DNA of 64,000 bases, from positions 84,205,363-84,269,362 of the forward strand of contig JASCQW010000027.1 of the NCBI GenBank assembly GCA_030264375.1, given 5' to 3'. Source of the DNA: Carcharhinus longimanus. Its lineage: Eukaryota. The notes under the pieces are model-generated. The model had not been told where the DNA came from, made no database searches, and was given only the letters and a program-made list of their open reading frames with translations. Within the stretch, counting starts at the first letter, position 1; the number at the start of each line of letters is the position of its first letter. Position numbers and translations under genes: made by a program. Below are positions 773 to 63,981 of the stretch, piece by piece.

Positions 773-1195
773 TGTTATAACCAGCTGAGAAGGAATGAGC
801 TGGCTCCCCTTTCTATTCAACACCTTCAGCTGATCACAAAAAAAAATCGTTTAAAATTCTTTCCTCATGGATACCTTTTCCCGATTCAAATTTTTTTTAT
901 TATTAAGGAGCCCATTCAACCAGGTTTCAGAGTCAAAGAAAGAATAATTTCCTTAGTTATTAAAAACATGCACATCAGAAATAAAAAAGGCAAGAGTCTA
1001 AATAAAAGTTAAAAGAATATATGAATCAGTCCTTAGCTTGTCCATGAGACATAGTCATATGGTTGTAGACATTAAATTGGGTGATTTCAGTAGAGCTGAC
1101 ACTGGCAGATTCACAATCTGTTGGAGACAGTTTCCAGCTTGTTCCCAGAAGGGAGATTGTTACGTACAGACTAAGGATACGTAATCATAAGGTAG

Positions 1196-1320
1196 CTCTT
1201 TTAAGGCACCAATCAAATAAACAAACTCAAATTAACTTAGGGACAAATAAAAAAGGGGCAGCCCCCCAAAAAGGAAGGGAGGGACAGCCCGAACAAAAAA
1301 CCAAAGTCAAAATGAAACTT
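1196..1320 (-). mobile_element. Tx1-like LINE 3' UTR only (copy A)
   Basis: Homologous to the 3' UTRs of copies B and C; ends AAAAGAG on the minus strand, immediately followed by CTACCTTATGATTA. Confidence 0.7.
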
Positions 1321-1388
1321 TTTTTCTTTTTGCTGCCTTGTCCAATTGGATTCCAATCAGCAAAGGGTGGGATTGGGGACCCAGGTGT

Positions 1389-1712
1389 CTTTTAGGTCAA
1401 AGCAAATAGACAAACGCAAACTAAATTAGGACAAAGTTAAAGGGGCAGCTCCCCAAAAGGAAGAGGAACAGCCCAAACAAAAACAAAAGTACAAAAGGAA
1501 ACTTAAAACATTAAATCAAAATGTGGTTGTCGGGGCCTATGATGCACCCCAGCCCCTGCGGTGCCCAACGGGCACTGTTGATGTCTTCTGCGCCCGTGGA
1601 CACCGTATGCTCCCTCTTCGCGAATGTAACTGTGGTAGAGGAGCAGACAGTTAGGATGGATGATCCCGTAGATCGCCCACTGCCTGGACCCATTGATGGC
1701 ACGTTTAGCCAA
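1389..1712 (-). mobile_element. Tx1-like LINE, 5'-truncated (ORF2 C-terminus + 3' UTR, copy B)
   Basis: LAKRAINGSRQ...REHTVSTG...RWAPQGLGCIIGPDNHILI*; 14-bp frameshifting deletion relative to copy C. Confidence 0.75.
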
Positions 1713-1726
1713 TAATCGTAAGGTAG

Positions 1727-2070
1727 TTCTTTTAACGGCCCAACAAGTAAAACAAACTCAAATTAACTTAGGGACAAATTAAGAGGGGCAGCCCCCAAAA
1801 AAGGAAGGGGGGACGGCCCAAACAAAAAACAAAGTTGAAAGGAAACTTAAAACATTAAATCAAAGTGTGATTGTCGGGGTCTGTAATACACCCCAGCCCC
1901 TGCGGTGTCCAGCGGGCGCGGAAGGCGTCAACTGTGCCCATGGACACTGCATGCTCCCTCTCCAGGGACACCTGGCCACGAATGTAGCCGCGGTAATGAG
2001 GCAGACAGTCGGGATGGATGATCCTGTCGATCACACGCTGCCTGGACCTATTAATGGCGCATCTCGCCAA
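1727..2070 (-). mobile_element. Tx1-like LINE, 5'-truncated (ORF2 C-terminus + 3' UTR, copy C)
   Basis: Open frame 1855-2070 LARCAINRSRQ...VSLEREHAVSMGTVDAFRARWTPQGLGCITDPDNHTLI*, resembling vertebrate Tx1-clade ORF2 C-termini. Confidence 0.78.
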
Positions 2071-2324
2071 TAATCATAAGGTAGGCTTAGTAACTTGAGC
2101 ACTGGGGGAGACCTTTATTAAATGAGTACACCATTCCACAGACAGATCTTAGACTGCCCAACAAACTCCCACACTGGTAAGAGCTAATTGTCCAGGGGCC
2201 ACCTGACCCACACTTTTAAAGGGGTAGTCCAAACACCAGCAGACAATAAATACATATATCACAGAAATGACTTGGTTGTCTCTCCAGGGGTAACTGAAGA
2301 GGCTTTCCTGTTTGCTTTCTGCCT

Positions 2325-2630
2325 AGACAGCACAGACGCTACGACAACGGATGAATGAACATCGCTCGACAATCACCAGGCAAGACTGTTCCCTTCCTGT
2401 TGGCGAANNNNNNNNNNNNNNNNNNNNNNNNNNNNNNNNNNNNNNNNNNNNNNNNNNNNNNNNNNNNNNNNNNNNNNNNNNNNNNNNNNNNNNNNNNNNN
2501 NNNNNNNGACGAAGAGGGAAACCTCGAAAGCTTGTGCGTTTACTATCAAATAAATCGGTTGGACTAAAACCTGGTGTTGTCAGAATTTTTACTGTGTTTA
2601 CCCCAGTCCAACGCCGGCACATCCACATCA
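2325..2630 (+). mobile_element. Penelope-like element, 5'-truncated (GIY-YIG end + terminal repeat)
   Basis: TAQTLRQRMNEHRSTITRQDCSLPVGE resembles a GIY-YIG endonuclease; exact 12-bp TSD TGCTTTCTGCCT at 2313-2324 and 2631-2642. Confidence 0.85.
2508..2536 (+). ncRNA. Minimal type I hammerhead ribozyme motif (5' end lost in gap)
   Basis: (CT)GACGA-A-GAGG GAAA CCTC-GAAAGCTT-GTG: core boxes, GNRA-capped stem II, palindromic AAGCTT stem III. Confidence 0.7.
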
Positions 2631-3203
2631 TGCTTTCTGCCTGCCAGACAGCTTAGCTCCAGCAAGAGTCTGTTTGTTTCTGCAGTAGTAATTAGATTGA
2701 TGATTCTTCTTGCTCCTGTCACTCCCAAACACTGGTCAGAGCGCGGGGCGGGTGGGTGGGGAGGGGTGAATAGGCATATCTTGCAACTAAAGTCTGTTCT
2801 GCTTTCATCTTGGAAGTTAACTTTACACATTGAGATACAAATCATTAGAAGATGGATTTTTAGGTATCTGTTGAAATGTCAGAAATTACCTACATTGTTT
2901 TCCCAAACACAGGAGATAGAAGTCCAGCCTTTTGCATTTTCCATACCTTTGTTCCAGTGCCATTGCTCGGTAACTCTTCAGGTGAAAAATTCCATGTTAC
3001 CACAAATCAGGTCTGTCAGTATAATTGACTTAAATATTTTTAAGAAAGTGGTCATTTTACAGTATTGGCCATCTATTGATCAGAGTTTTTATTCATTATT
3101 TTCTTAAAATAAAGAGTCTTCTTTAAACAGTTCATTATTCACGTAATTAATTAGAAAAGTTGTCGGTGTATCTCATTCTTCCATTGTGTCCATTTTTGTG
3201 ACA

Positions 3204-4208
3204 AAATTATAAAGATATTGGTATATTAATATATGACCAAATAGATTTCAATGTAGGCAAACGTTTGGACATTCACATTGTGGCTAAAAGGGATCAAACA
3301 GTATGCTCCACTAAAAACAGTGGAAATCCAGCGACGTGGAGGTTTGGGTACATAAAACAGCTAGAGAAACTAAACAAAAATGCTGAAGGAATGCTGGCCT
3401 TTATATCGAGAGGATGAGAACTCAAGGGCAGTTGAAGTCATGCTTCAGTTTTCCTAAGCCGTGGTGAGATCACACCTGTGAGCTATTCTAGGCCCTACAT
3501 CTCAGGGAGAATAGGAGAATATCTTGGGCTTGGAGGGACTGCAACATCGATTTACTCAAATGATCTCTTGACTCCAAAGGTTAAATTACAAAGAAATATT
3601 ACACAAACTGGTATTTCCTGGTATTTAGAGTGTTAAGTACTAATTTGATATAAGATTTCAAGATCTTAAGGGAAATGGTAAGTTAGATGGAGAAACTATT
3701 TCATTAATTAGAGACTGTCGGGGTGGGGAGCATTGTCTAAATATTCAAACCAGACCTTTCAGGAGTGAAATTAGGAAAGATTTCTACACACAAAGGGCCA
3801 GATTTTGCAGTCCTATTGAGCGTGACCATCCCCCCCCCACCTCCCCCCACCGCCCCCTCCTGGCTAGTTTCCCAGCAGGTTGTTTAGTGAGCAACACAGA
3901 TTGCCATTGATTTCAGTGGGGGGCTAGAAGATCCCGCTGGCAACCAATGGGGATCCATCTTTGCTGCAGGAAAATCTCCTACTGGAGGGCTGGAAAATTC
4001 CTGCCAAAGGGTGCCAGAAGTTTGGAATTATCTTTTGTTCTTCCGCAAATGGCAATTGGTGTTTTATCAATTATTAATTTTAAACCCGAGAATGATTCAA
4101 AAGGTATTAAAGGATATCAGGTAAAAATGGACTCGATTGCGTTGCCATGATCTCAATGAATGGTAAAACTGGCTGGAAGGGCTAAATGGCCTGCTCCCAT
4201 TCTATGTC
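3204..4208 (+). mobile_element. CR1-type LINE 3' part (continuation of 125-772)
   Basis: atagatttcaatgtaggcaaa, atgctggcctttatatcgagagg, CR1 3' UTR gccatgatctcaatgaatgg...ggctaaatggcctgctcc. Confidence 0.85.
3795..4005. mobile_element. PIF/Harbinger-type MITE inserted in CR1
   Basis: Imperfect TIRs GGGCCAGATTTT / AAAATTCCTGCC, flanked by 3-bp AAA duplication. Confidence 0.65.
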
Positions 4209-5648: not shown

Positions 5649-5978
5649 AACATAGAATCCGTAAAAGGCCATCGCATCTGCACTACTCTCTGAAAGAGTA
5701 CCTTACCCAAGTCCAAATCCCTATCCCCTGCCGACCTATCCCCATAACCCACGCATTACATCCTTTACACACTGTACTAAGGGGCAATTTAGCATGGCCA
5801 ATCCACCTACCCTGCACGTTTTTGGAATATGAGAGAAAACCAGAGCGCCTGGAGGAAACCCACACAGACACGGGGAGAACGTGCAAACCCCACACAGAAA
5901 GCACCCAAGGCTGGAATCCAACCCGGATCCCTGGCGCTGTGAGGCAGCAGTGCGAACCACTGTGCCACCATGCTGCCC
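5649..5978 (-). mobile_element. HE1-like V-SINE
   Basis: tRNA-derived head, V-domain (gtgggtttcctcc...ggccatgctaaattgcccctta), CR1-like tail. Confidence 0.9.
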
Positions 5979-5989
5979 TATTGCTTTAG

Positions 5990-18380: not shown

Positions 18381-18589
18381 CTAAAATCATTGGAAGTGTC
18401 TCAATGCACTTTTCATAATTTAATTGTGAGAAAGAAGTATTCTTTTCTTTATGTAATTGCATAAAACTAAGCAGCTTACTGATAAAGACATTATGAATTG
18501 ACAAACTAACTCGAGACTATTATTTGATATTTTTAAATATCTAATTTGAGTATTTCCCTTTTATTCTTACGTCATATTTCTCTCTTTTT

Positions 18590-18870
18590 AAAATTTATTT
18601 ATTAGTCACAAGTAGGCTTAGATTAACACTGCAATGAAGTTACTGTGAAAATCCCTTTAGTCGCCACAATCTAACACCTGTTTGGATAGATTGAGGGAGA
18701 ATTTAGCATGGCCAATGCACCTAACCAGCATGTCTTTCGGACTGTTGGAGGAAACCCAAATAGACAAGGGGAGAACATGCAGACTCCAAACGGACAGTGA
18801 CCCAAGCTGGAAATCAAACCCGGGTCCCTGATGCTGTGAGGCAACAGTGGTAACCACTGCCATTGTGCCG
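18590..18870 (-). mobile_element. HE1-like V-SINE with alternative (non-CR1) 3' tail
   Basis: V-domain present; tail reads gattttcacagtaacttcattgcagtgttaat...gtgactaataaa. Confidence 0.85.
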
Positions 18871-22640: not shown

Positions 22641-25347
22641 TTAACTTTGTACTAAATTATTGGCCTGTAACTTTTTTGGAGTAACAATCATCATTGGATT
22701 GCCACTACATACCCACTNNNNNNNNNNNNNNNNNNNNNNNNNNNNNNTCGCCCACTTTCCTGACTCAAGCCAGGCAAGATCAGATAACACAGCTGTCCGC
22801 AAAGTCCAGCATCGAAGTCTAATAGAGTCGGAGTAAAAAAGAGAACACGTTCCGTTTTGTAATGGCACTTCCTGCCATAAAGCAGATCAGTTTAAAAGTT
22901 CAATTGAAACTGACAGGTCAGGGAGAAGGTAAGTCTCTAAGGTAAGTGGATAAGATTTGGGGTTGTGGGGGGAACCACAGGTTAGTGTTTCTGGGGTGGG
23001 GGAGACACCGGAGTGGATGTGGAGGGTGATGGTGGGATTTGGACTTGGGGTGAGGTGAGGAATTGGACATTGGGATGAGCTGGGGGAAAACGGGTTCAGA
23101 CACTGGGGAGTGATAGCCAATAATGAAGGTTGGTCTTCGGAAGGGCAAAGGGAGTTGGGGGTGGAGGGGGGGACACAATTCCATACCCACCAGTTCCTTT
23201 TGAGTGGGTTCAATCTGGGAATATGTATAGTTGCTGCATTTCTCCTTATAGGTTAAATTGGGTAAAACATTGGTATGCTCAATCTATCCCAGTTCACTCA
23301 CAGATAACATCAATATATTAGGGTTGAGAACACATCAGAGTGCACTGCTATTGAGAGACTAATTTCCTGCGGATCTAATAGCAGCAAATTTATAAGGCAG
23401 AGAAAGAAATTGTTTTTGTTCTAGTTAACAATCGCAAATCTCAAACAGGCAGATCTCTATGGACTAATCAACATTTACATGACTAGAATATGTGCTCATT
23501 GATAGAGAGAGAAGGACAGAGGAGAAATGAGATATTGTAGCTGCACACCGAAGTGTGAAGCAAGATTCTACAAAGTGAGGAAACGGGATTTATGCGATGT
23601 GTATGATATTAGAATATCACGACCGGATCATTTTAACCCCAAGCTTTGTTGGAGATTGAGTGGTATCATTTAAATGTTTTGCATCTTGCGCGTCCATGAA
23701 AGGGTCACATTTTAAAAGAACAGGTTGAACATTAAGTCCATCAAGCATCTTTAAAATAGTTTTTAGTTTGGGAATTTCCATTTTACCACGAAAAGAATAA
23801 GCATTAAAAATTGGACCGTGATCACACATATCATTTCCAAGCACAAAATTCAGCTGCTGCTCCTTTTGATGCACCCAGCACACTTGCTAATATCATTGGT
23901 ATCTATTTAATCTCGACATATCAAATCCTATGTTTGAGCAAGAGCTCAAATACCCTTTCCAACTAATCTGGCATTCTATTTGGCAATTCAAAATCAATCT
24001 GCAAAAGTCCTGATGGGACCAGCATGGAAGGTGCCATATTTAAAGAGATTACCAGCTGCTGTCAGGTAGATCACTGGCTGTTTTATTTACGTTGACAGGA
24101 GATGAATTTGGATTCACTGGGGGGCTTGTGGAAAGCAAGTCAGTCATGAAAGTCTTTTAAGAGGCTCCATGCCTCCATCTTTTTTAGCCCATATTGGCTA
24201 GGGTCCCTTGGTATATTTCTTGGCGAGTGCAGTTGCTAAAAGGAAGCAAGAATGGCTTAATCCATAGATAAAAAGCCCTTATAGCTCTGTTTATGAGCCA
24301 AGGGGAGTAGGATTGTTTCATTAACTCAAGAATCTCCCTATTAACCCTCCCTGCCCTATATCCAATGTCTCCTGTAAGTTCTTTCCCATTGTGCATGGCT
24401 TGTTTACTGTGTGGTATCTTTGAGCAAACTGTGGTAACATTCCTTGGCTGCAATGTTGCAGCTTACTGATAACATTGTCCACTTTTGGGCAAAGGAACTC
24501 ACATAGGAACTGTGTGAGTTCCTGATCTTCTATAATCATCACTACCCCACCATTCCCCCAACTCCCTTTATCGTCACCTTCCTCACATTCACTAATAACC
24601 TGCCATTTCTGATATTTTTCCTTATCCCTGAGATCTGCATATTTATCTGATCCCCACAATCTTCCTGCCAACTGTCCAGCTCCCTTGCCTGATATCACAT
24701 GTTCTATTAGATTCCCTGACAAGCTTCCCCACCCCACTCCATTGTGATCTATTATATTTCCAAACTGCTCATGATTTCCCTATACTGCCTTTCCTGACCC
24801 CCCCCCATGATATTTTATCTTCCCTGACCACCAGGAATATCCCCCTGTGATACGCCACTTTCCTTGAAACTCCCGCTGTGATCTACCCTACAATCTTACT
24901 ATTTCAGCTCCAACTCCTGCTGACGAACCCTCCCATCACCATTACTATATTCTAACCATCCTCTCACCCCCCTCCCCTCCCCAATCACCAATCCCCAACT
25001 TACCCTCTACCCACCTCACTCTCTCCAGTCCATCATCAGCCCCTTCACGATCACCAAATGATTTTCCAAGACTGGATATTAGGTGAGGCATCTTGCTCTC
25101 TGGCAGGTTTCTGAATCATAACTCCTAGCTCCCCTCCCTCTCTGAAATCACATCTCATGCAAATATTGTAGTTAAGATGTACAGTAAAGAAATCTCTCTC
25201 CCACATGGGGTGTCTTCTCTGATATTGTGTGAAAGTCTGTCCTGCAAGAGGAATAGAATGTGTTAGTCAGTCAGGTATGGAGAAGTTTTCATCATCTATT
25301 ACGTGGGTTGGAATGGTTTGTTGCTGCAAAGAAGTATCTGTAAAGAA

Positions 25348-25635
25348 GGGATAGCATGGTGGCACAGTGGTTAACACTGCTGCCTCACAGCGCCAGGGAC
25401 ACAGTTTCAATTCTGGCATCAGGTGACTGCCTGTGCAGAGTTGGCATATTCTCCCCGTGTCTGCATAGGTTTCCTCTGCGCTCCAGTTTCTTCCCACAGT
25501 CCAAAGATGTGCAGGTTAGGGGGATTGGCTATGAGATAAGGCAGGATGGTGGGCCTGGGTAAGATGCTCTGTCAGAGAGATAGTGAAAACTTGATGGGCT
25601 GAATGGCCTCCTTCTGCAGTGTAGGAAATCTGAGT
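25348..25635 (+). mobile_element. HE1-like V-SINE
   Basis: ggtggcacagtggttaacactgctgcctcacagcgccaggg; CR1-like tail gatgggctgaatggcctccttctgca. Confidence 0.9.
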
Positions 25636-26004: not shown

Positions 26005-26303
26005 GATCATAGAATCCCTGCAGCAGAGAAGATGACTATTCAGCCTATTGAGTCTACATCGACTCTCTGATTGAGTGTCTTACTCATGCCCTTTTCCCCA
26101 CCCTGTCCCCATAACCCAACACGGTTAATCAATCTAACCTAAACATCTTTCAGCTTTGGGAGGAAACTGGAGCACCCAGAGAAAACCTGCACAGACAAGG
26201 GGAGAAGGTGCAAACTCCACAAAGACAGTCACCCAAGGCCAGAATTGAACCTGGATCCCTAGCACTGAGGCAACAGTGTTAACCACTGTACCACCGTGCC
26301 ACC
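26005..26303 (-). mobile_element. HE1-like V-SINE
   Basis: gggaggaaactggagcaccc...aaccactgtaccaccgtgccacc. Confidence 0.9.
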
Positions 26304-26444
26304 CTTTCTTATTTTAGAATTATGCTATAAAACATTGCCCCTTCTAATGAGGATTATATTTACTCTTGTTAATTTCCTCCAGGGAATTATCAGAAATCAG
26401 GGGCATGCTACACCTCAACGGTTTTTTTGCCATCAGATAATAGA

Positions 26445-27548: not shown

Positions 27549-27954
27549 CTACAAGAGAAAAGGCAAGAAATTTACAAAACACCCCCAGGACAGTGCCTTC
27601 AAAGAGATAAGACCCCAAGAGACTTAATGTACCCTGAGCCACTTACTAGTGAATGTCCCTGCAGTGAGGATTTGAAAATACAATTACAAATGGAGGATGC
27701 TTGCTGTATGGTGGCTCAACTACATCAAAACGTCAAAATGTCTCTCCTTAGAAGTACTTTTTTCAGATTATATCATCTATTCCATAATGACTGGTCATCT
27801 GTCTATATTGAGCCTTTAGCTTTGGTAATGCGCAGCCTTATCCTTTGCCAGAGCACAGTAAATAACATGACTGAAGTCACTGAGCACCTCCAACATTACC
27901 ACTGTGTCCACAAAACCTGATTCCCAGAATCAGTTTTAAAGTTAAGTTTTTTTA

Positions 27955-28240
27955 GAAAGTTTATGTATTAGTGTCATATGTAGGCTTACATTAACACTGC
28001 AGTGAAGTTAGTGTGAAAATTCCTGAGTCGTCACCCTGTGGCTCCTGTTCAGGTACGATGAGGGAGAATTTAGCATGGTCAATGCACCTAAACCTTTCAG
28101 ACTGTGGGAGCAAACCACAGCACCGAGGAAACCCACACAGACACTGGGAGAACGTGCAAACTCCGCACAGGGGGTGACCCAGAAATCGAACCCAGGTGCA
28201 TGGTACTGTGAGGCAATGATAACCACTGTGCCACCATGTT
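27955..28240 (-). mobile_element. HE1-like V-SINE with alternative 3' tail
   Basis: Same tail type as 18590-18870. Confidence 0.85.
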
Positions 28241-28904
28241 GCTCAATCGAGCCACTGTGAATAAACTGCCGTGCTGTTTCTTCAGGCAGGGTCCTGCAAG
28301 AGTGAAACTTTGTGTGTTGTGATTCCTGTGGAGACAGGCAGCTTTTGTAAGTGTATTTTAATTCCCGTGCCTGACTGAAAAGATCACAAAATATTTCAAG
28401 TCATACAACTTTTACTGTAATAAACAAACAAAAGTAGCACTGTCTAAATATTCGGTAGGCAAGTTCTACGCAAACTACAGATGGAATTCACCACCCTCCA
28501 CCCTTTTAAACTTTAAAGCAAAATAAAATACCCCTCTACATAAATAGGGGACATTTCAATCTCTACGAACATGCGCTAACTCAAAAAGCTATTCTCAGCT
28601 CTCACTATCTTGTTTCCTGTTTTCCTTCTCCAGCTAGATTACTTCTAATCGCCAAAAAGACATTTTTGGTGAGGGTGATCATGGTGATTCCTGTCTCGAG
28701 CCAAAATGGGGCAAATCTTCCAGCTTAGTTAAATCCTCACAAAGTCAAACTTTTCAACCTAACTTTGAGCTTCAACTTGCCACTAAATCAATGGTGAAGG
28801 AAACTAAGGGAGCAGCACAGCAGGCTGAGAGAATCCCGTCCAGGTGCTTTATAGATGGTAGGCTGACTTTGGAGCTAAGAGGTGAATTATGCACTGGAGA
28901 GCAC

Positions 28905-31329: not shown

Positions 31330-32330
31330 TCACAGACCACCAGTACGACTAACTGTGCAGAGTAAATAAGCAGCCTGTACTAAACATACTTTGTTAATAA
31401 AGCTCCTTTAGTTTGTCAGCTTTCATGCCTCTTAGCATCAATCCTGCAGACATAACACAAACTGGCGACAAGGACATCAAACAGCACTTGCTAGCCACCA
31501 GGGAGGAGGAAAAAATTCATTGGAAAAGTCAGGAGAAAGGACTTTGAAGAAAAGCTATCCACATGGTCTGGATAGAATGCACTTGGTGAGCATGAGTAAT
31601 GATCACCCTGCAAAGTGATTAAAGAACAATTGCAGAAGCAAATATAGGACATGGAGTGTTTAAAAATCAGGCTGAAGATTGGGTTGTGTCTTGTTTTAAA
31701 AGGCAAAGCAGCTGCTGAAAACACATTGCAAACTCTGCACAAGGAGCACCTTCCATTAGAAAAATAATTGTGGGAGTTTTTGGTGCCGTGGAATCCTTCT
31801 GTGAAAATGTGGAGCGATGGAGATCCTATCCTGAGCAGTTTAACCATTTTGTGCAAGCAAGCAAAATAACAGAAGATTTTTGGGTTTCCGTGTGTCTGAG
31901 TGTAATGGGGAGGGTGGGAGAGTGGGGGGGACGGACAGGATGTTTAATCTCCTCAGAAATTCAGTGCAGCCTGAGAAGCCAGGCACGAAAACATATAGAC
32001 AAATTGTAGAATTTCAAGCACATTGTTGGCCAAAGTCTTTAGTGATTGGAGAGTGGTTCAGATTTCACAAACGTATTGAAGAAGAGGGGGAATTAATTGC
32101 ACATTTCATAGATGTATTAAAAAGACTTTCAGAGTACTGTGAGTTCAGTCATGTGTCAAATGACACAATTGAGGACGGATTAATCTGTGATCTGAGAAGT
32201 GAGGCAATACAGAAATGGTCGCTAAACAGAGTAACCTTACTCTGCAAAAGTGCTGTGTAAATTGCTGTTTCAATGGAGCTGGCTGTGAAAGAAGCTCAGC
32301 AACTGATACAAATACTCACAAAATGATAGC
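31330..32330 (+). mobile_element. Gypsy (Mag-like) LTR retrotransposon 5' remnant: LTR end, PBS, gag
   Basis: AATAAA, LTR end TAACA (31457), PBS TGGCGACAAGGA (near match to tRNA-Ser GCT 3' end); gag FNLLRNSVQPEKPGTKTY...FRFHKRIEEEGE...LKRLSEYCEF. Confidence 0.85.
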
Positions 32331-33098: not shown

Positions 33099-33495
33099 CT
33101 GTACTCTGGAAATTGTTCTCAGATTTTCTACACTGACTCTCTAAATTTTGTAAAAAGTCTGACAACACCAGGTTTTAGTCCAACCAATTTATTTGATAGT
33201 AAACGCACAAGCTTTCCCTCAAAGAGAGAAAACNNNNNNNNNNNNNNNNNNNNNNNNNNNNNNNNNNNNNNNNNNNNNNNNNNNNNNNNNNNNNNNNNNN
33301 NNNNNNNNNNNNNNNNNNNNNNNNNNNNNNNNNTTGGACTAAAACCTGGTGTTGTCAGACTTTTTACTGTGTTTACCCCAGTCCAACGCCGGCACATCCA
33401 CATCATCTCTAAATTTTGACAGTGCGTTTGAGAGAAGCATTTTCAGTACGTTCTGCATTAAGAGGAATGGCCCTGTTCCTCGTTATCATTGAGAA
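33099..33495 (-). pseudogene. Disrupted duplicate of the 35271-35427 exon
   Basis: Clear homology to 35271-35427; donor CAG|GTATGA kept; acceptor position reads CAT; internal deletion; Penelope insertion. Confidence 0.5.
33151..33405 (+). mobile_element. Palindromic Penelope-derived element
   Basis: Inverted arms taaaaagtctgacaacaccaggttttagtccaa / ttggactaaaacctggtgttgtcagactttttac; exact 13-bp TSD TCTCTAAATTTTG (33138-33150, 33406-33418). Confidence 0.88.
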
Positions 33496-35479: not shown

Positions 35480-36220
35480 GACAGCATCAAAATGACATGA
35501 TTCCGGCAATAGTATTGATGTGTGCTCCATAACTTGCTGCAGCCCTAGTCAACTGTTCCAGCACAACTGCAACACTGGCATCTACCCAGCATTGTGGAAA
35601 ATTGCCCCTGTATGCCTTATACACAAGAAAGAGGACAATTCCAACCCAACCAATTACCACCCCATCTCGACAATTAGTAAACTGATGGAAGGGGATTTGC
35701 AAAAGTGCTATAAAGTGGCATTTACTCAGCAATAACATGCTCACTGGTGTTCAATTTGGGTTCTGCCAGGATCACTCAACTCATTACAGCTTTGGTTCGA
35801 ACAAAGGCAAAAGAGCTGAATTCCAGAGATGAAGTGAGAGCAACTGCCCTTGACATCAAGACAACATTTATTCGAGTGTGGCATCTAGAAGCCCTAGCAA
35901 ATAAAAAAAGTCAATGGGAATCAGGGGAAAATCTTTCACTGGTTGGAGTCATACCTGGCACAAAGGAAGATGGTGGTGATGGCTGGAAGTCAATCATATC
36001 AGCTCCAGAACATCACTGCAGGAGTCCCTCTGGGTAGTGTCCTAGGTCCAACCATCTTCACTTGCTTCATTAATGACCTCCCTTCCATCATAAGGCCAGA
36101 AGTGGGGGATGATCACTGGTGACTGCATAATCTCAGCGCTATTTGTGACTTCAAGATACTGAAGCAGTCTACATTCAAATGCAACAAGACCTTGACAATA
36201 TCCAGATTTGGGCTGACAAA
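35480..36220 (+). mobile_element. LINE family 2 RT fragment
   Basis: IYPALWKIAPVCLIHKKEDNSNPTNYHPIS, ALDIKTTFIRVWH, GVPLGSVLGP. Confidence 0.88.
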
Positions 36221-36811: not shown

Positions 36812-37032
36812 AGTGGGTTTCCTCCAGGTCCTCTGGTTTCCTCCCACAGTCCAAAGATGTGTGAGTTAGGTTAATTGGCCAGGAAAGAAATTTCCCCTTA
36901 GTGTCCAGGGATGTGTAGGTTAGAAGGATTAGTGGGTAAATATGCAGGGATATCGGGGTAGGGTTGTGTTCGGTGCAGACTCAATGGACCGAAGGGCCTC
37001 TTTCTGCACTGTAGGGTTCTATGATTCCTATG
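36812..37032 (+). mobile_element. HE1-like V-SINE, 5'-truncated
   Basis: V-domain and ttctatgattcctatga tail. Confidence 0.85.
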
Positions 37033-43561: not shown

Positions 43562-43769
43562 ACTAAGGGGCAATTTCTTAGCATGGCCAATCAACCTAAC
43601 CCACACATCTTTGGACGGTGGGAGGAAACCGGAGTACCCGGAAGAAACCCACGCAGACACAAGGAGAATGTGCAAACTCCACACAGACAGTGACCCGAGC
43701 CGGGAATTGAACCCAGGTCCCTGCAGCTGTGAAGCAGCAGTGCTAACCACTGTGCTACCATGCCACCCA
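43562..43769 (-). mobile_element. HE1-like V-SINE inserted in a minus-strand CR1 (approx. 43090-43935)
   Basis: Near-consensus head and V-domain; CR1 sequence on both sides. Confidence 0.9.
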
Positions 43770-44414: not shown

Positions 44415-44925
44415 CCAAATGAGGCGGAATTTCTTCATTGAAAGAGTCATGAATCCTTGGATTTCTCTACCCCAGAGTGCAGTGGATGCTAGAACACTGA
44501 ACAAATTTAAGGAGGGAGTAGGTAGGTTGGTTTTTAATTAGCAGTGGGATGAAGGGTTATGGGAAGCGGGCAGGAAGTTGGAGATGAAGTTGAGATGAGA
44601 TTAGCCATGATGGTAATGAATGGATCTTGGGTTCATGTCGCACTATCTGTAACCCCCATGACTTGCCTGGGTTTGCAAAACCTCACTTACTGTNNNNNNN
44701 NNNNNNNNNNNNNNNNNNNNNNNNNNNNNNNNNNNNNNNNNNNNNNNNNNNNNNNNNNNNNNNNNNNNNNNNNNNNNNNNNNNNNNNNNNNNNCCCGAAA
44801 GCTTGTGAGTCTATTATCAAATAAATCGGTTGGACTAAAACCTGGTGTTGTCAGACTTTTTACTGTGTAATGAATGGAGCAGCATGTTCAAGGGGCTGAA
44901 TTGTCTACTACTTCTAGTTTTTACG
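44415..44925 (+). mobile_element. CR1 3' end interrupted by a Penelope element
   Basis: MRRNFFIERVMNPWISLPQSAV; 3' UTR split at gtaatgaatgga. Confidence 0.8.
44625..44866 (+). mobile_element. Penelope-like element, 5'-truncated
   Basis: LGFMSHYL* ORF end; cgaaagcttgtg hammerhead half after the gap; exact 12-bp TSD GTAATGAATGGA (44613-44624, 44867-44878). Confidence 0.85.
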
Positions 44926-45702: not shown

Positions 45703-47135
45703 TACCCTTCCATAACATGTCTATCAGCCGGTCGGACAGAGGAGAAATTCACCCTGTAAAATCTATTTCAGTAAGAACTGAGAGGAAGTGTTATATACTT
45801 GTTCTCCAGATGCAGGATGTCATGCAGTGGGATAGATGTATCAGAAATTGGAGGTTTGGGAATCTGGAGGGCCCACACCATTTTCCATCCATTCAATTAA
45901 TTAATCTTTCTTCATTATTGCCTTTCTCATTGTTGCCAGCACATTGCTGAGTTTATCTCTCTTTCTCTTTGCACGGATCTGAATGCCATGTTGCAATATA
46001 TTGTATGAAATATTATTGAAATTAAACACATGTCTCCATTTCAAAGACAGAAGAAAGGATCAAGAGATAGAGCGCGATTCTAATAGACCTACGTTTGTAG
46101 AAGCTTCACCTTCCTCACTCTCTTAATGCATTTGTACATTAAAATGTGCAGGTGGTATGGACAGGAGGGCAATTAATTTAATCTGCCCTGATTCCTCCTT
46201 TTACTACTCATCTGTAAACAAATTGTGATTTTTGATTCCCTCCTTTATAAGTGGTGGCATTTTCCCTAACCCTTCATTATGGAGCAATCCGACCCTCTAT
46301 TAATAACCCCACAGCACACTTGGGTTAAAGTTAAAATAAGAGGGTTGGTTTACTTTACACCCATACAAATTTCAGAATGGGGTTTTGCAAAGTCAACCCT
46401 TCCACACTCCAATAATAAATGAAGAATAAGGAAAAGAAAGAGGCAGAGAGCAAGACCCTGATAAAAGTAAGAGTTATGGTTTGATGCGAGTCCGGACTCC
46501 AGAATCAAAAGTCCGAAGATGTATCCTTCAAAGGTTAGCAGGATGAAACTGTTGCAGAGTGATCCACCTTCCCAGAAGCAATGATTTCTCAAATGGGAGA
46601 AGGCATGCAGAAATGAATTAGTCTTATAGGCACCAGTACAGAAATTCCAATGTTCCAGTGGTACACACTAAATGAAAGTCAGCAGTTTACCTGTAGGGAG
46701 CTCTTTCTGCTGCTGCCTGTGAGGTCAATGGTAGGCTGTCTGAGTTCAGTTCCACACAGCAATATCACAAATTCTAGCAGCTTAGAGTAAATCATGTGAC
46801 ATACCTCCCACTTCTTCTCCTGCATTTTGGACAAAGGATGTATTTGTTTGAATCTAGAAGCTTGGAGTATTTAATAGAACAGATAGAGTCCCTTTTGTCC
46901 ATGTGGCCAGAGTTCTGCCCTAGAAATGTAAAAGATGTTGGAGTGTTTTTTAGGAATTTGAGTTTCTGTAGTTTTGGACAGCATTGGTGCCTCTTTAAAA
47001 GGTAAGAAGGACCCTGCCAGTCAGGCATATCAGGGCAAGGCCTTTGTCCATTTTTAAAATAAAAATAATAATTTTATAAAACAGTTAGCTTAATGTGGAT
47101 GTATATTTTCCCTTCTGTCATCTGAATGGGAGTAC

Positions 47136-47399
47136 ACACAGTAAGAAGTCTCACAACACCAGGTTAAAGTCCAACAAATTTATTTGNNNNNNNNNNAAGC
47201 TTTCAGAATGCTGTTCCTTTGTCAGATAAGTGACGCTCACCAGTGACGTTCCTTCGTCAAGTGAGTCCCACTCACCTGACAAAGGAACAATGTTCTGAAA
47301 GCTTGTGGGCTTGCTATCAAATAAACTTGTTGGACTTTAACCTGGTATATGAGATTTCTTACTATGTTTACCCCAGTCCAACACCAGCATCTCCACATC
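47136..47399 (+). mobile_element. Palindromic Penelope-derived element with hammerhead cores
   Basis: Inverted arms; CAC-CTGACAA-AGGAACAATGTTCT-GAAAGCTT-GTG at 47273-47306; tail ccccagtccaacaccagcatctccacatc. Confidence 0.85.
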
Positions 47400-63664: not shown

Positions 63665-63981
63665 TAGAACTATAGAAATCTTAGAGCACAGAAGGAGGCC
63701 ATTCAGCCCATTAAGCCTGCATTGACAGTAATTCCATCCAGGCCCTATCCCTGTAACTCCATGTATCTAACCTGCTAGTCTCCCTGACGCTAAGGGACAA
63801 TTTATTATGGCCAATCAACCTGATCAGCACATCTTTGGAGCGTGGGAGGAAACTGGAGCAACCGGAGGAAACCCACACAGACATGGGGAGAATGTGCAGG
63901 CTCCACTCAGACAGTGACCCAAGGCTGGATTTGAACTTTGATCCTTGGCGCAGTGAGGCAATAGTGCCAACATGCTGCCCT
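63665..63981 (-). mobile_element. HE1-like V-SINE
   Basis: Head, V-domain and CR1-like tail. Confidence 0.9.

Follow-up and report, generated by a model that had tools for sequence, protein, structure and literature searches.

A tandem array of L1/Tx1-group LINE 3′ ends inside an LTR-like element of Carcharhinus longimanus: repeated targeting or early duplication?

Does a row of LINE 3′ ends, set in tandem inside another mobile element, record the repeated targeting of one site, or a single insertion that was multiplied afterwards? The question is raised by a 64,000-nucleotide stretch of Carcharhinus longimanus DNA (the window), for which the original prediction proposed that a Tx1 family repeatedly enters a 14-bp site within an LTR and regenerates the site as a target-site duplication (TSD) each time. 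We analyzed the anatomy of this array, the identity of the inserted LINE, the host element and the divergence among the inserted units, and weighed the routes by which the array may have arisen.

Anatomy of the array

Three units (A, B and C) lie head to tail on the minus strand, all finishing in TAAAAGA, and B and C both hold an ORF2 C-terminus, which confirms the predicted series of three Tx1-like 3′ ends. On that strand the order is M, C, M, B, a 65-nt spacer, A and M (Table 1), where M stands for the 14-mer TAATCATAAGGTAG. M is present at all three positions originally noted, exactly in the two outer copies and with one mismatch, a transition, in the middle copy. Matches to M with up to three mismatches are ordinary in number (7 in the window against 6.46 expected); an exact M is expected 0.001 times per window, and the trio is therefore not due to chance. 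Three separate insertions would require M to be present four times, and it occurs three times for the three units: no M was found between B and A, where only the spacer lies, and the notion of three M-bracketed insertions accordingly gives way to an array of the form M-C-M-B-spacer-A-M. The inserts display 5′ truncation, an intact 3′ end and a TSD, and an assembly artefact is ruled out by copies that are 14–23% apart. No significant fold was found in the 3′ UTR.

Table 1. Features of the array and of the elements around it, in positions of the window
Feature	Position	Strand	Remarks
Outer LTR-like element X	773..3203	.	TGTTAT...GTGACA, boundaries inferred
Purine run	1147..1156	+	10/10 purines just ahead of TGTTAC; resembles a polypurine tract, or reflects the composition of X at this place
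Left arm of inner LTR-like element Y	1158..1181	+	starts TGTTAC
M, downstream TSD copy	1182..1195	-	exact; follows 3′ end of A
Unit A	1196..about 1322	-	3′ UTR only, about 125 nt, end TAAAAGA
Spacer	1323..1387	-	65 nt, CCAAT-rich, without M
Unit B	1388..1712	-	ORF2 tail (1712-1511, 14-nt deletion) and 3′ UTR
Micro-inversion in B	1568..1597	.	core 1574-1591, between hairpin arms
M, middle copy	1713..1726	-	one transition; between C 3′ end and B 5′ end
Unit C	1727..2070	-	open 71-codon ORF2 tail (2070-1858, stop 1857-1855) and 3′ UTR
M, upstream TSD copy	2071..2084	-	exact
Right arm of Y	2085..2295	+	AATAAA at 2245, end GTAACT

Judged by its context, M behaves as a TSD and is read here as target DNA, because ORF2 relatives have VNLLLG before LAK, where M sits in the array, because M in the ORF2 frame reads T-L-stop/R-L, and because the whole array is flanked by M, its outer copies adjoining unrelated host sequence. 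The same comparison of VNLLLG with T-L-stop/R-L rules out M as a part of ORF2; a profile (A2) that runs three codons into M matches it at the first codon only. The original reading of M as regenerated target DNA rather than element sequence thus holds. An RNA gene in M or in the spacer was also considered and rejected, as no credible Rfam match was obtained (one chance sRNA match at E 0.016, and none in a second search) and ARAGORN found no tRNA in either; M is neither an Rfam RNA gene nor a tandem repeat at this locus. A 6-bp inverted repeat spans the array within the host arms (1170-1175 and 2086-2091), with a second GTAAC near 2090, and a hairpin around the target, formed by this repeat, is possible.

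Identity of the inserted LINE

The ORF2 tail of C shares 76% identity with the C-terminus of protein P0002, the sole match among three candidates, and 63% with P0031, with RVT_1 and zf-RVT below the cut-off. A HMMER search for relatives gave 28 matches, 24 of which were accepted as true, the four long ones (P0007, P0009, P0010 and P0029) being unrelated repeat proteins that were set aside. P0034, reached like P0031 by way of P0002, is a full-length ORF2 of 1304 aa with an endonuclease (PF03372) and a reverse transcriptase domain (PF00078); its best PDB match is L1 ORF2p and its named relatives come from turtle, sturgeon and teleosts. Compared directly, C and P0034 are only 24% identical. P0031 and P0034 group together at support 1.0, sister to a teleost clade with Takifugu Q76IM7, in a tree that took in 58 of 153 stored proteins and was built without family-labelled Tx1, Keno, Kibi or Koshi references. 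We take Q76IM7 to be a member of the Tx1 clade. Through this chain of relatives, from the C tail to P0031 and from there to P0034 with its APE and RT domains and L1 ORF2p as nearest structure, the inserts are assigned by homology to an APE- and RT-encoding non-LTR retrotransposon of the L1/Tx1 group; that they are Tx1 proper is our assumption from the types of sequence involved. No other copy of the element was found in the 64-kb window or in plasmids, nor was there one in prokaryotic genomes, where 167 pattern matches were inspected. A weak match at 35890-35921 was rejected as a further copy, since it sits in sequence resembling the RT of another LINE.

The host element and its surroundings

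The array had been placed in a short LTR-like element running from TGTTAC to GTAAC, a description that stands in part. This element (Y, 1158-2295) has a poly(A) signal and a run of 10 purines at its edge, as an LTR would. It starts TG and has a 5-bp inverted repeat, but the terminal base is T instead of A (the element ends CT), the flanking duplication reaches 4/6 at best, and Y lies nested within X, for which the flanking match is 3/4. Inverted repeats of this kind occur at 54.5% of 3000 random sites. The full signature of Y was seen at 0 of 6000 random sites; with the purine run left out, 515 of 6000 showed it under a loose start and 22 under a strict one, counts that refer to a signature chosen after the locus had been seen and to two arms studied separately. 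Neither arm of Y has a second copy in the window. Judging from these features, the host is probably LTR-derived, whether it is Y or X.

X in turn appears, from the homology on its two sides, to split a CR1-type LINE (1-772 and 3204-3800). With X removed, the CR1 RT on its left and the CR1 3′ part on its right lie 320 nt apart, against 402 nt on another CR1 copy; alignments spanning the exact CR1 breakpoints were not significant. The nesting would then have at least three levels, namely CR1, then the LTR-like element or elements, then Tx1 and Penelope. The last of these is a fragment at 2313-2642 that contains an assembly gap and has at its two ends a direct repeat of 12 bp without mismatch (2313-2324 and 2631-2642); we presume it to be a Penelope-like 3′ piece, it has no Pfam match, and its end recurs near 33150-33406, 44796-44868 and 47124-47399. 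Elsewhere in the window, an open frame on the plus strand (31844-32260) is presumably the decayed N-terminus of a Gypsy-type gag, and a SINE-like repeat, about 200 nt long and with 70-88% pairwise identity, is abundant, lying at 5776-5979, 18585-18869, 25343-25533, 26127-26304, 27949-28242, 36813-36911, 43562-43768 and 63787-63971. We take this repeat to be of the shark HE1 type; it has no ARAGORN or Rfam match.

Units B and C share a breakpoint

B and C begin at the identical ORF2 nucleotide, immediately following M, in the Leu codon that precedes Ala-Lys, and C was therefore most likely copied from the already inserted M-B junction. The preceding codon in the relatives is Gly, so that any microhomology with M at this breakpoint is limited to 1 nt. 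Under an assumed geometric model with assumed mean lengths of 1000-150 nt, the chance of the same breakpoint arising by independent truncation is 0.0005-0.003. Distinct 5′ truncations are a published sign of double insertion (PMC5932611); B and C do not differ in this respect, and only A does. A copy of the TSD is present at the C/B junction and absent at the B/A junction.

That the copies differ clearly, as first stated, is correct, but the difference looks like neutral decay inflated by an inversion in B and does not speak for independence. A micro-inversion of 18-30 nt and a 14-nt deletion, both in B, enlarge the difference between B and C; the plus strand of the inversion matches P0002 at 9 of 10 residues, and the mismatches between B and C drop from 14 to 9 of 63 once it is accounted for. 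Outside the inversion the differences fall on the three codon positions as 10/10/13, with no third-position excess, and 29 of the 33 are transitions, 12 being CpG-type. Synonymous changes amount to 12.5 of 32, against 10.1-10.5 in a neutral simulation (P 0.15-0.20), and selection between B and C is set aside because transition bias accounts for the raw dN/dS of 0.5. Decay is also equal: measured against four relatives, B and C have 9 private amino-acid changes each, with 1 unclear. The two have no stop or frameshift in common and 1 joint residue unlike all four relatives, and this lack of a joint disabling change points to early copying and argues against late recombination. The divergence of B and C thus looks like the neutral decay of near-identical templates that were copied at about the same time. 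An inverted repeat lies within the ORF2 coding tail (1557-1607 in B, 1901-1952 in C) and is significant only in B (hairpin z -4.15, against -0.14 in C). It is this repeat that allowed the micro-inversion in B, and it may serve as a hairpin for RNA recognition at the 3′ end.

Unit A and the spacer

Private substitutions in the 3′ UTR, counted over six gap settings, number 4 in A, 13-20 in B and 9-10 in C (p for A against B, 0.002-0.049), and gap-tolerant pairwise counts (A-B 15/117, A-C 11/121, B-C 14/115) are nearly star-like. The UTR of A is closer to that of C than to that of B, as the original prediction held, but modestly so. This closeness had been taken to argue against simple tandem duplication; it does speak against C being simply copied from B, with A standing well outside the pair, but it is consistent with C as a chimera of B and A. 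On these counts, the likeness of A and C would fit either such a chimera or a younger insertion of A.

The spacer begins exactly at the natural 3′ end of B. It has no ORF2 homology, no significant match to the flanking LTR arms and no other copy in the window, and its origin as a piece of ORF2 or of a flanking arm was rejected on these grounds. Its start agrees with M at 5 of M's first 6 bases if one gap is allowed, a likeness equalled by 9.7% of 6000 random stretches. It is rich in CCAAT-like and E-box-like words, of a kind frequent in promoter or LTR U3 sequence. B, the spacer and A may have arrived together; alternatively, the regenerated site may have been hit a second time, by A.

Origin of the array

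The reading that we prefer, and to which we give about an even chance, is a single insertion with a 14-bp TSD followed by early duplication through M, exchange between UTRs and neutral decay. A 5′-truncated copy of the L1/Tx1 group would have entered the LTR-like element in antisense by target priming, generating the 14-bp TSD. The founding insert would have been B-spacer-A, formed either by 3′ transduction, a known LINE process, from a source with a second 3′ UTR downstream, or as a template-jump chimera. Soon after, the region would have been duplicated through the 14-bp repeat, with the M/B junction copied as M/C, and the 125-nt UTR repeats would have exchanged sequence, by deletion or conversion, leaving C with the 5′ end of B and an A-like 3′ end, every copy decaying neutrally thereafter. 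We infer the order of these events, the route of duplication and the origin of the spacer. Early duplication is argued for by the same 5′ nucleotide in B and C, by their neutral decay and by three Ms for three units, and the closeness of C and A counts towards it as well, since a B/A chimera predicts a C UTR that leans to A. It requires two or three rare steps, however, and has to have been early, as B and C have no joint disabling change. The low number of private changes in A (4, against 13 and 10) equally suits a later insertion of A, the spacer starts exactly at the 3′ end of B and resembles M weakly in its first bases (P about 0.10), the model of truncation is an assumption, and even a single insertion could have been target-specific.

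Of the other routes, one that we consider improbable, though a real contender, combines two hits with one duplication: an insertion gave M-B-M, B was duplicated through M to form C, and the spacer with A came later to the regenerated site with a short TSD. This would be true re-targeting, acting through M or through a short nick preference. A lies exactly between the end of B and M, its 5′ end is distinct from that of B (the sign of double insertion in PMC5932611), it has the fewest private changes, the spacer opens like M, and target preference is frequent in Tx1 families (PMC4494074). Set against this are the frequency with which random stretches reach the same spacer-M likeness, the need for a different TSD length and for about 60 nt of foreign 5′ sequence, and the nearly star-like UTR counts. 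A smaller chance attaches to homology-guided re-insertion, by which a read-through RNA with M at its 5′ side anneals at M and produces the same 5′ junction each time. The RNA would be a fixed-length, non-autonomous Tx1 derivative, so that site specificity would be kept, at that same low probability, despite the common breakpoint. Such a process accounts for the common 5′ end and the M at each 5′ junction, as well as for the fact that B and C diverged early and that C ends like A; PMC4494074 proposes that SINEU-2B is transcribed from a flanking target transposon and says that co-transcription strengthens R2 targeting. It nevertheless presupposes an antisense transcript of the LTR and, on every occasion, an exact stop in M, leaves the spacer unexplained by re-insertion alone and has no second locus within the window. 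Slightly less probable still is a fuller version, in which a shark-type Tx1 lineage has its nick site, CTACCTTATGATTA, close to the edge of an LTR family, and arrays are built by the re-insertion there of a promoterless derivative of fixed length; that this derivative is transcribed antisense through the LTR and guided by homology at its 5′ junction, acting as a SINE-like parasite on a LINE that is in turn a parasite of an LTR, we hold to be just as doubtful.

The array may instead have hitchhiked, the Tx1 piece being captured once in the LTR of an active LTR element, multiplied by template switching while that element was reverse-transcribed, and spread with the composite LTR. The early duplication, the direct repeat at every breakpoint and the LTR hallmarks around the array agree with this, and hitchhiking had to be excluded for SINEU-3 as well (PMC4494074); but neither arm has a second copy in the window, and we regard it as quite unlikely. 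Three independent insertions at M, with M regenerated each time, are very improbable: the three copies of M, the head-to-tail order and the 14–23% between copies suggested them, whereas the fourth M is missing, the 5′ ends of B and C are identical and their divergence is neutral. The common truncation of B and C and their neutral divergence leave the claim of repeated targeting, derived from three independent hits, without support. One insertion is certain at this locus, and two independent ones are the maximum (B, then A). An old, broken piece of a LINE entered a further mobile element and was most likely copied beside itself afterwards, so that the locus does not demonstrate repeated hits on a single site. 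A family-wide preference for this LTR is doubtful. Were it true, LTR targeting by Tx1 would be extended from crocodilians to a shark, and an exact target of the APE endonuclease would be given. With early duplication, which we prefer, the locus is a set of nested repeats in decay and of limited general interest, yet it illustrates how a tandem array resembling site-specific insertion may grow from a TSD.

Comparison with known systems

Our literature search, with Repbase and most subscription papers outside its reach, turned up no study describing a target preference for a Tx1 element of sharks; the nearest systems come from other animals. The family-level targets named in PMC4494074 are Tx1D for Xenopus Tx1, U2 for Keno, and microsatellites for Kibi and Koshi. 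By its ORF2 relatives the element described here belongs to the same broad group, although M is neither an Rfam RNA gene nor a tandem repeat. Utopia is described as occasionally forming tandem copies in U2 genes (PMC4640811).

The array can also be set beside published tandem and chimeric insertions. The double-insertion TE dimers and R1 tandems of PMC5932611 have a tail-to-internal junction with a TSD copy, as at C/B; C and B, however, do not have distinct truncations, and B and A, whose ends do differ, are not separated by a TSD. A tripartite LINE chimera made by template jumping lies inside one 14-bp direct repeat (PMC2104539; template jumping is also treated in PMC2912911), and like it B-spacer-A consists of three fused parts within one 14-bp repeat, with the difference that the spacer matches no known RNA and no source was found for it in Rfam or in the window.

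The closest parallels are crocodilian. Two families of a Keno-related group, Tx1-8_Crp and Tx1-4_AMi, prefer specific LTR retrotransposons (PMC4494074) and thus, as here, place an APE-type Tx1-group LINE inside an LTR element. In that text a family counts as target-specific when one sequence type occupies more than 20% of its flanks genome-wide, so that the crocodilian preference extends over many loci (>20% of flanks) and is set against one locus here. In the same text Tx1-Mar and SINEU lie in Mariner-N4_AMi, often opposite in direction to the host, and tandem SINEU-3 copies sandwich a TSD of 16 nt. Tandem copies around a TSD and an orientation often opposite to the host transposon are features that these elements and our array have in common, whereas their host is a DNA transposon and their independence follows from 88 truncated copies, while two copies here share one truncation; no snRNA head was seen at this locus. 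Both LTR-preferring Tx1 families and tandem copies that sandwich a TSD are already known from crocodilians (PMC4494074).
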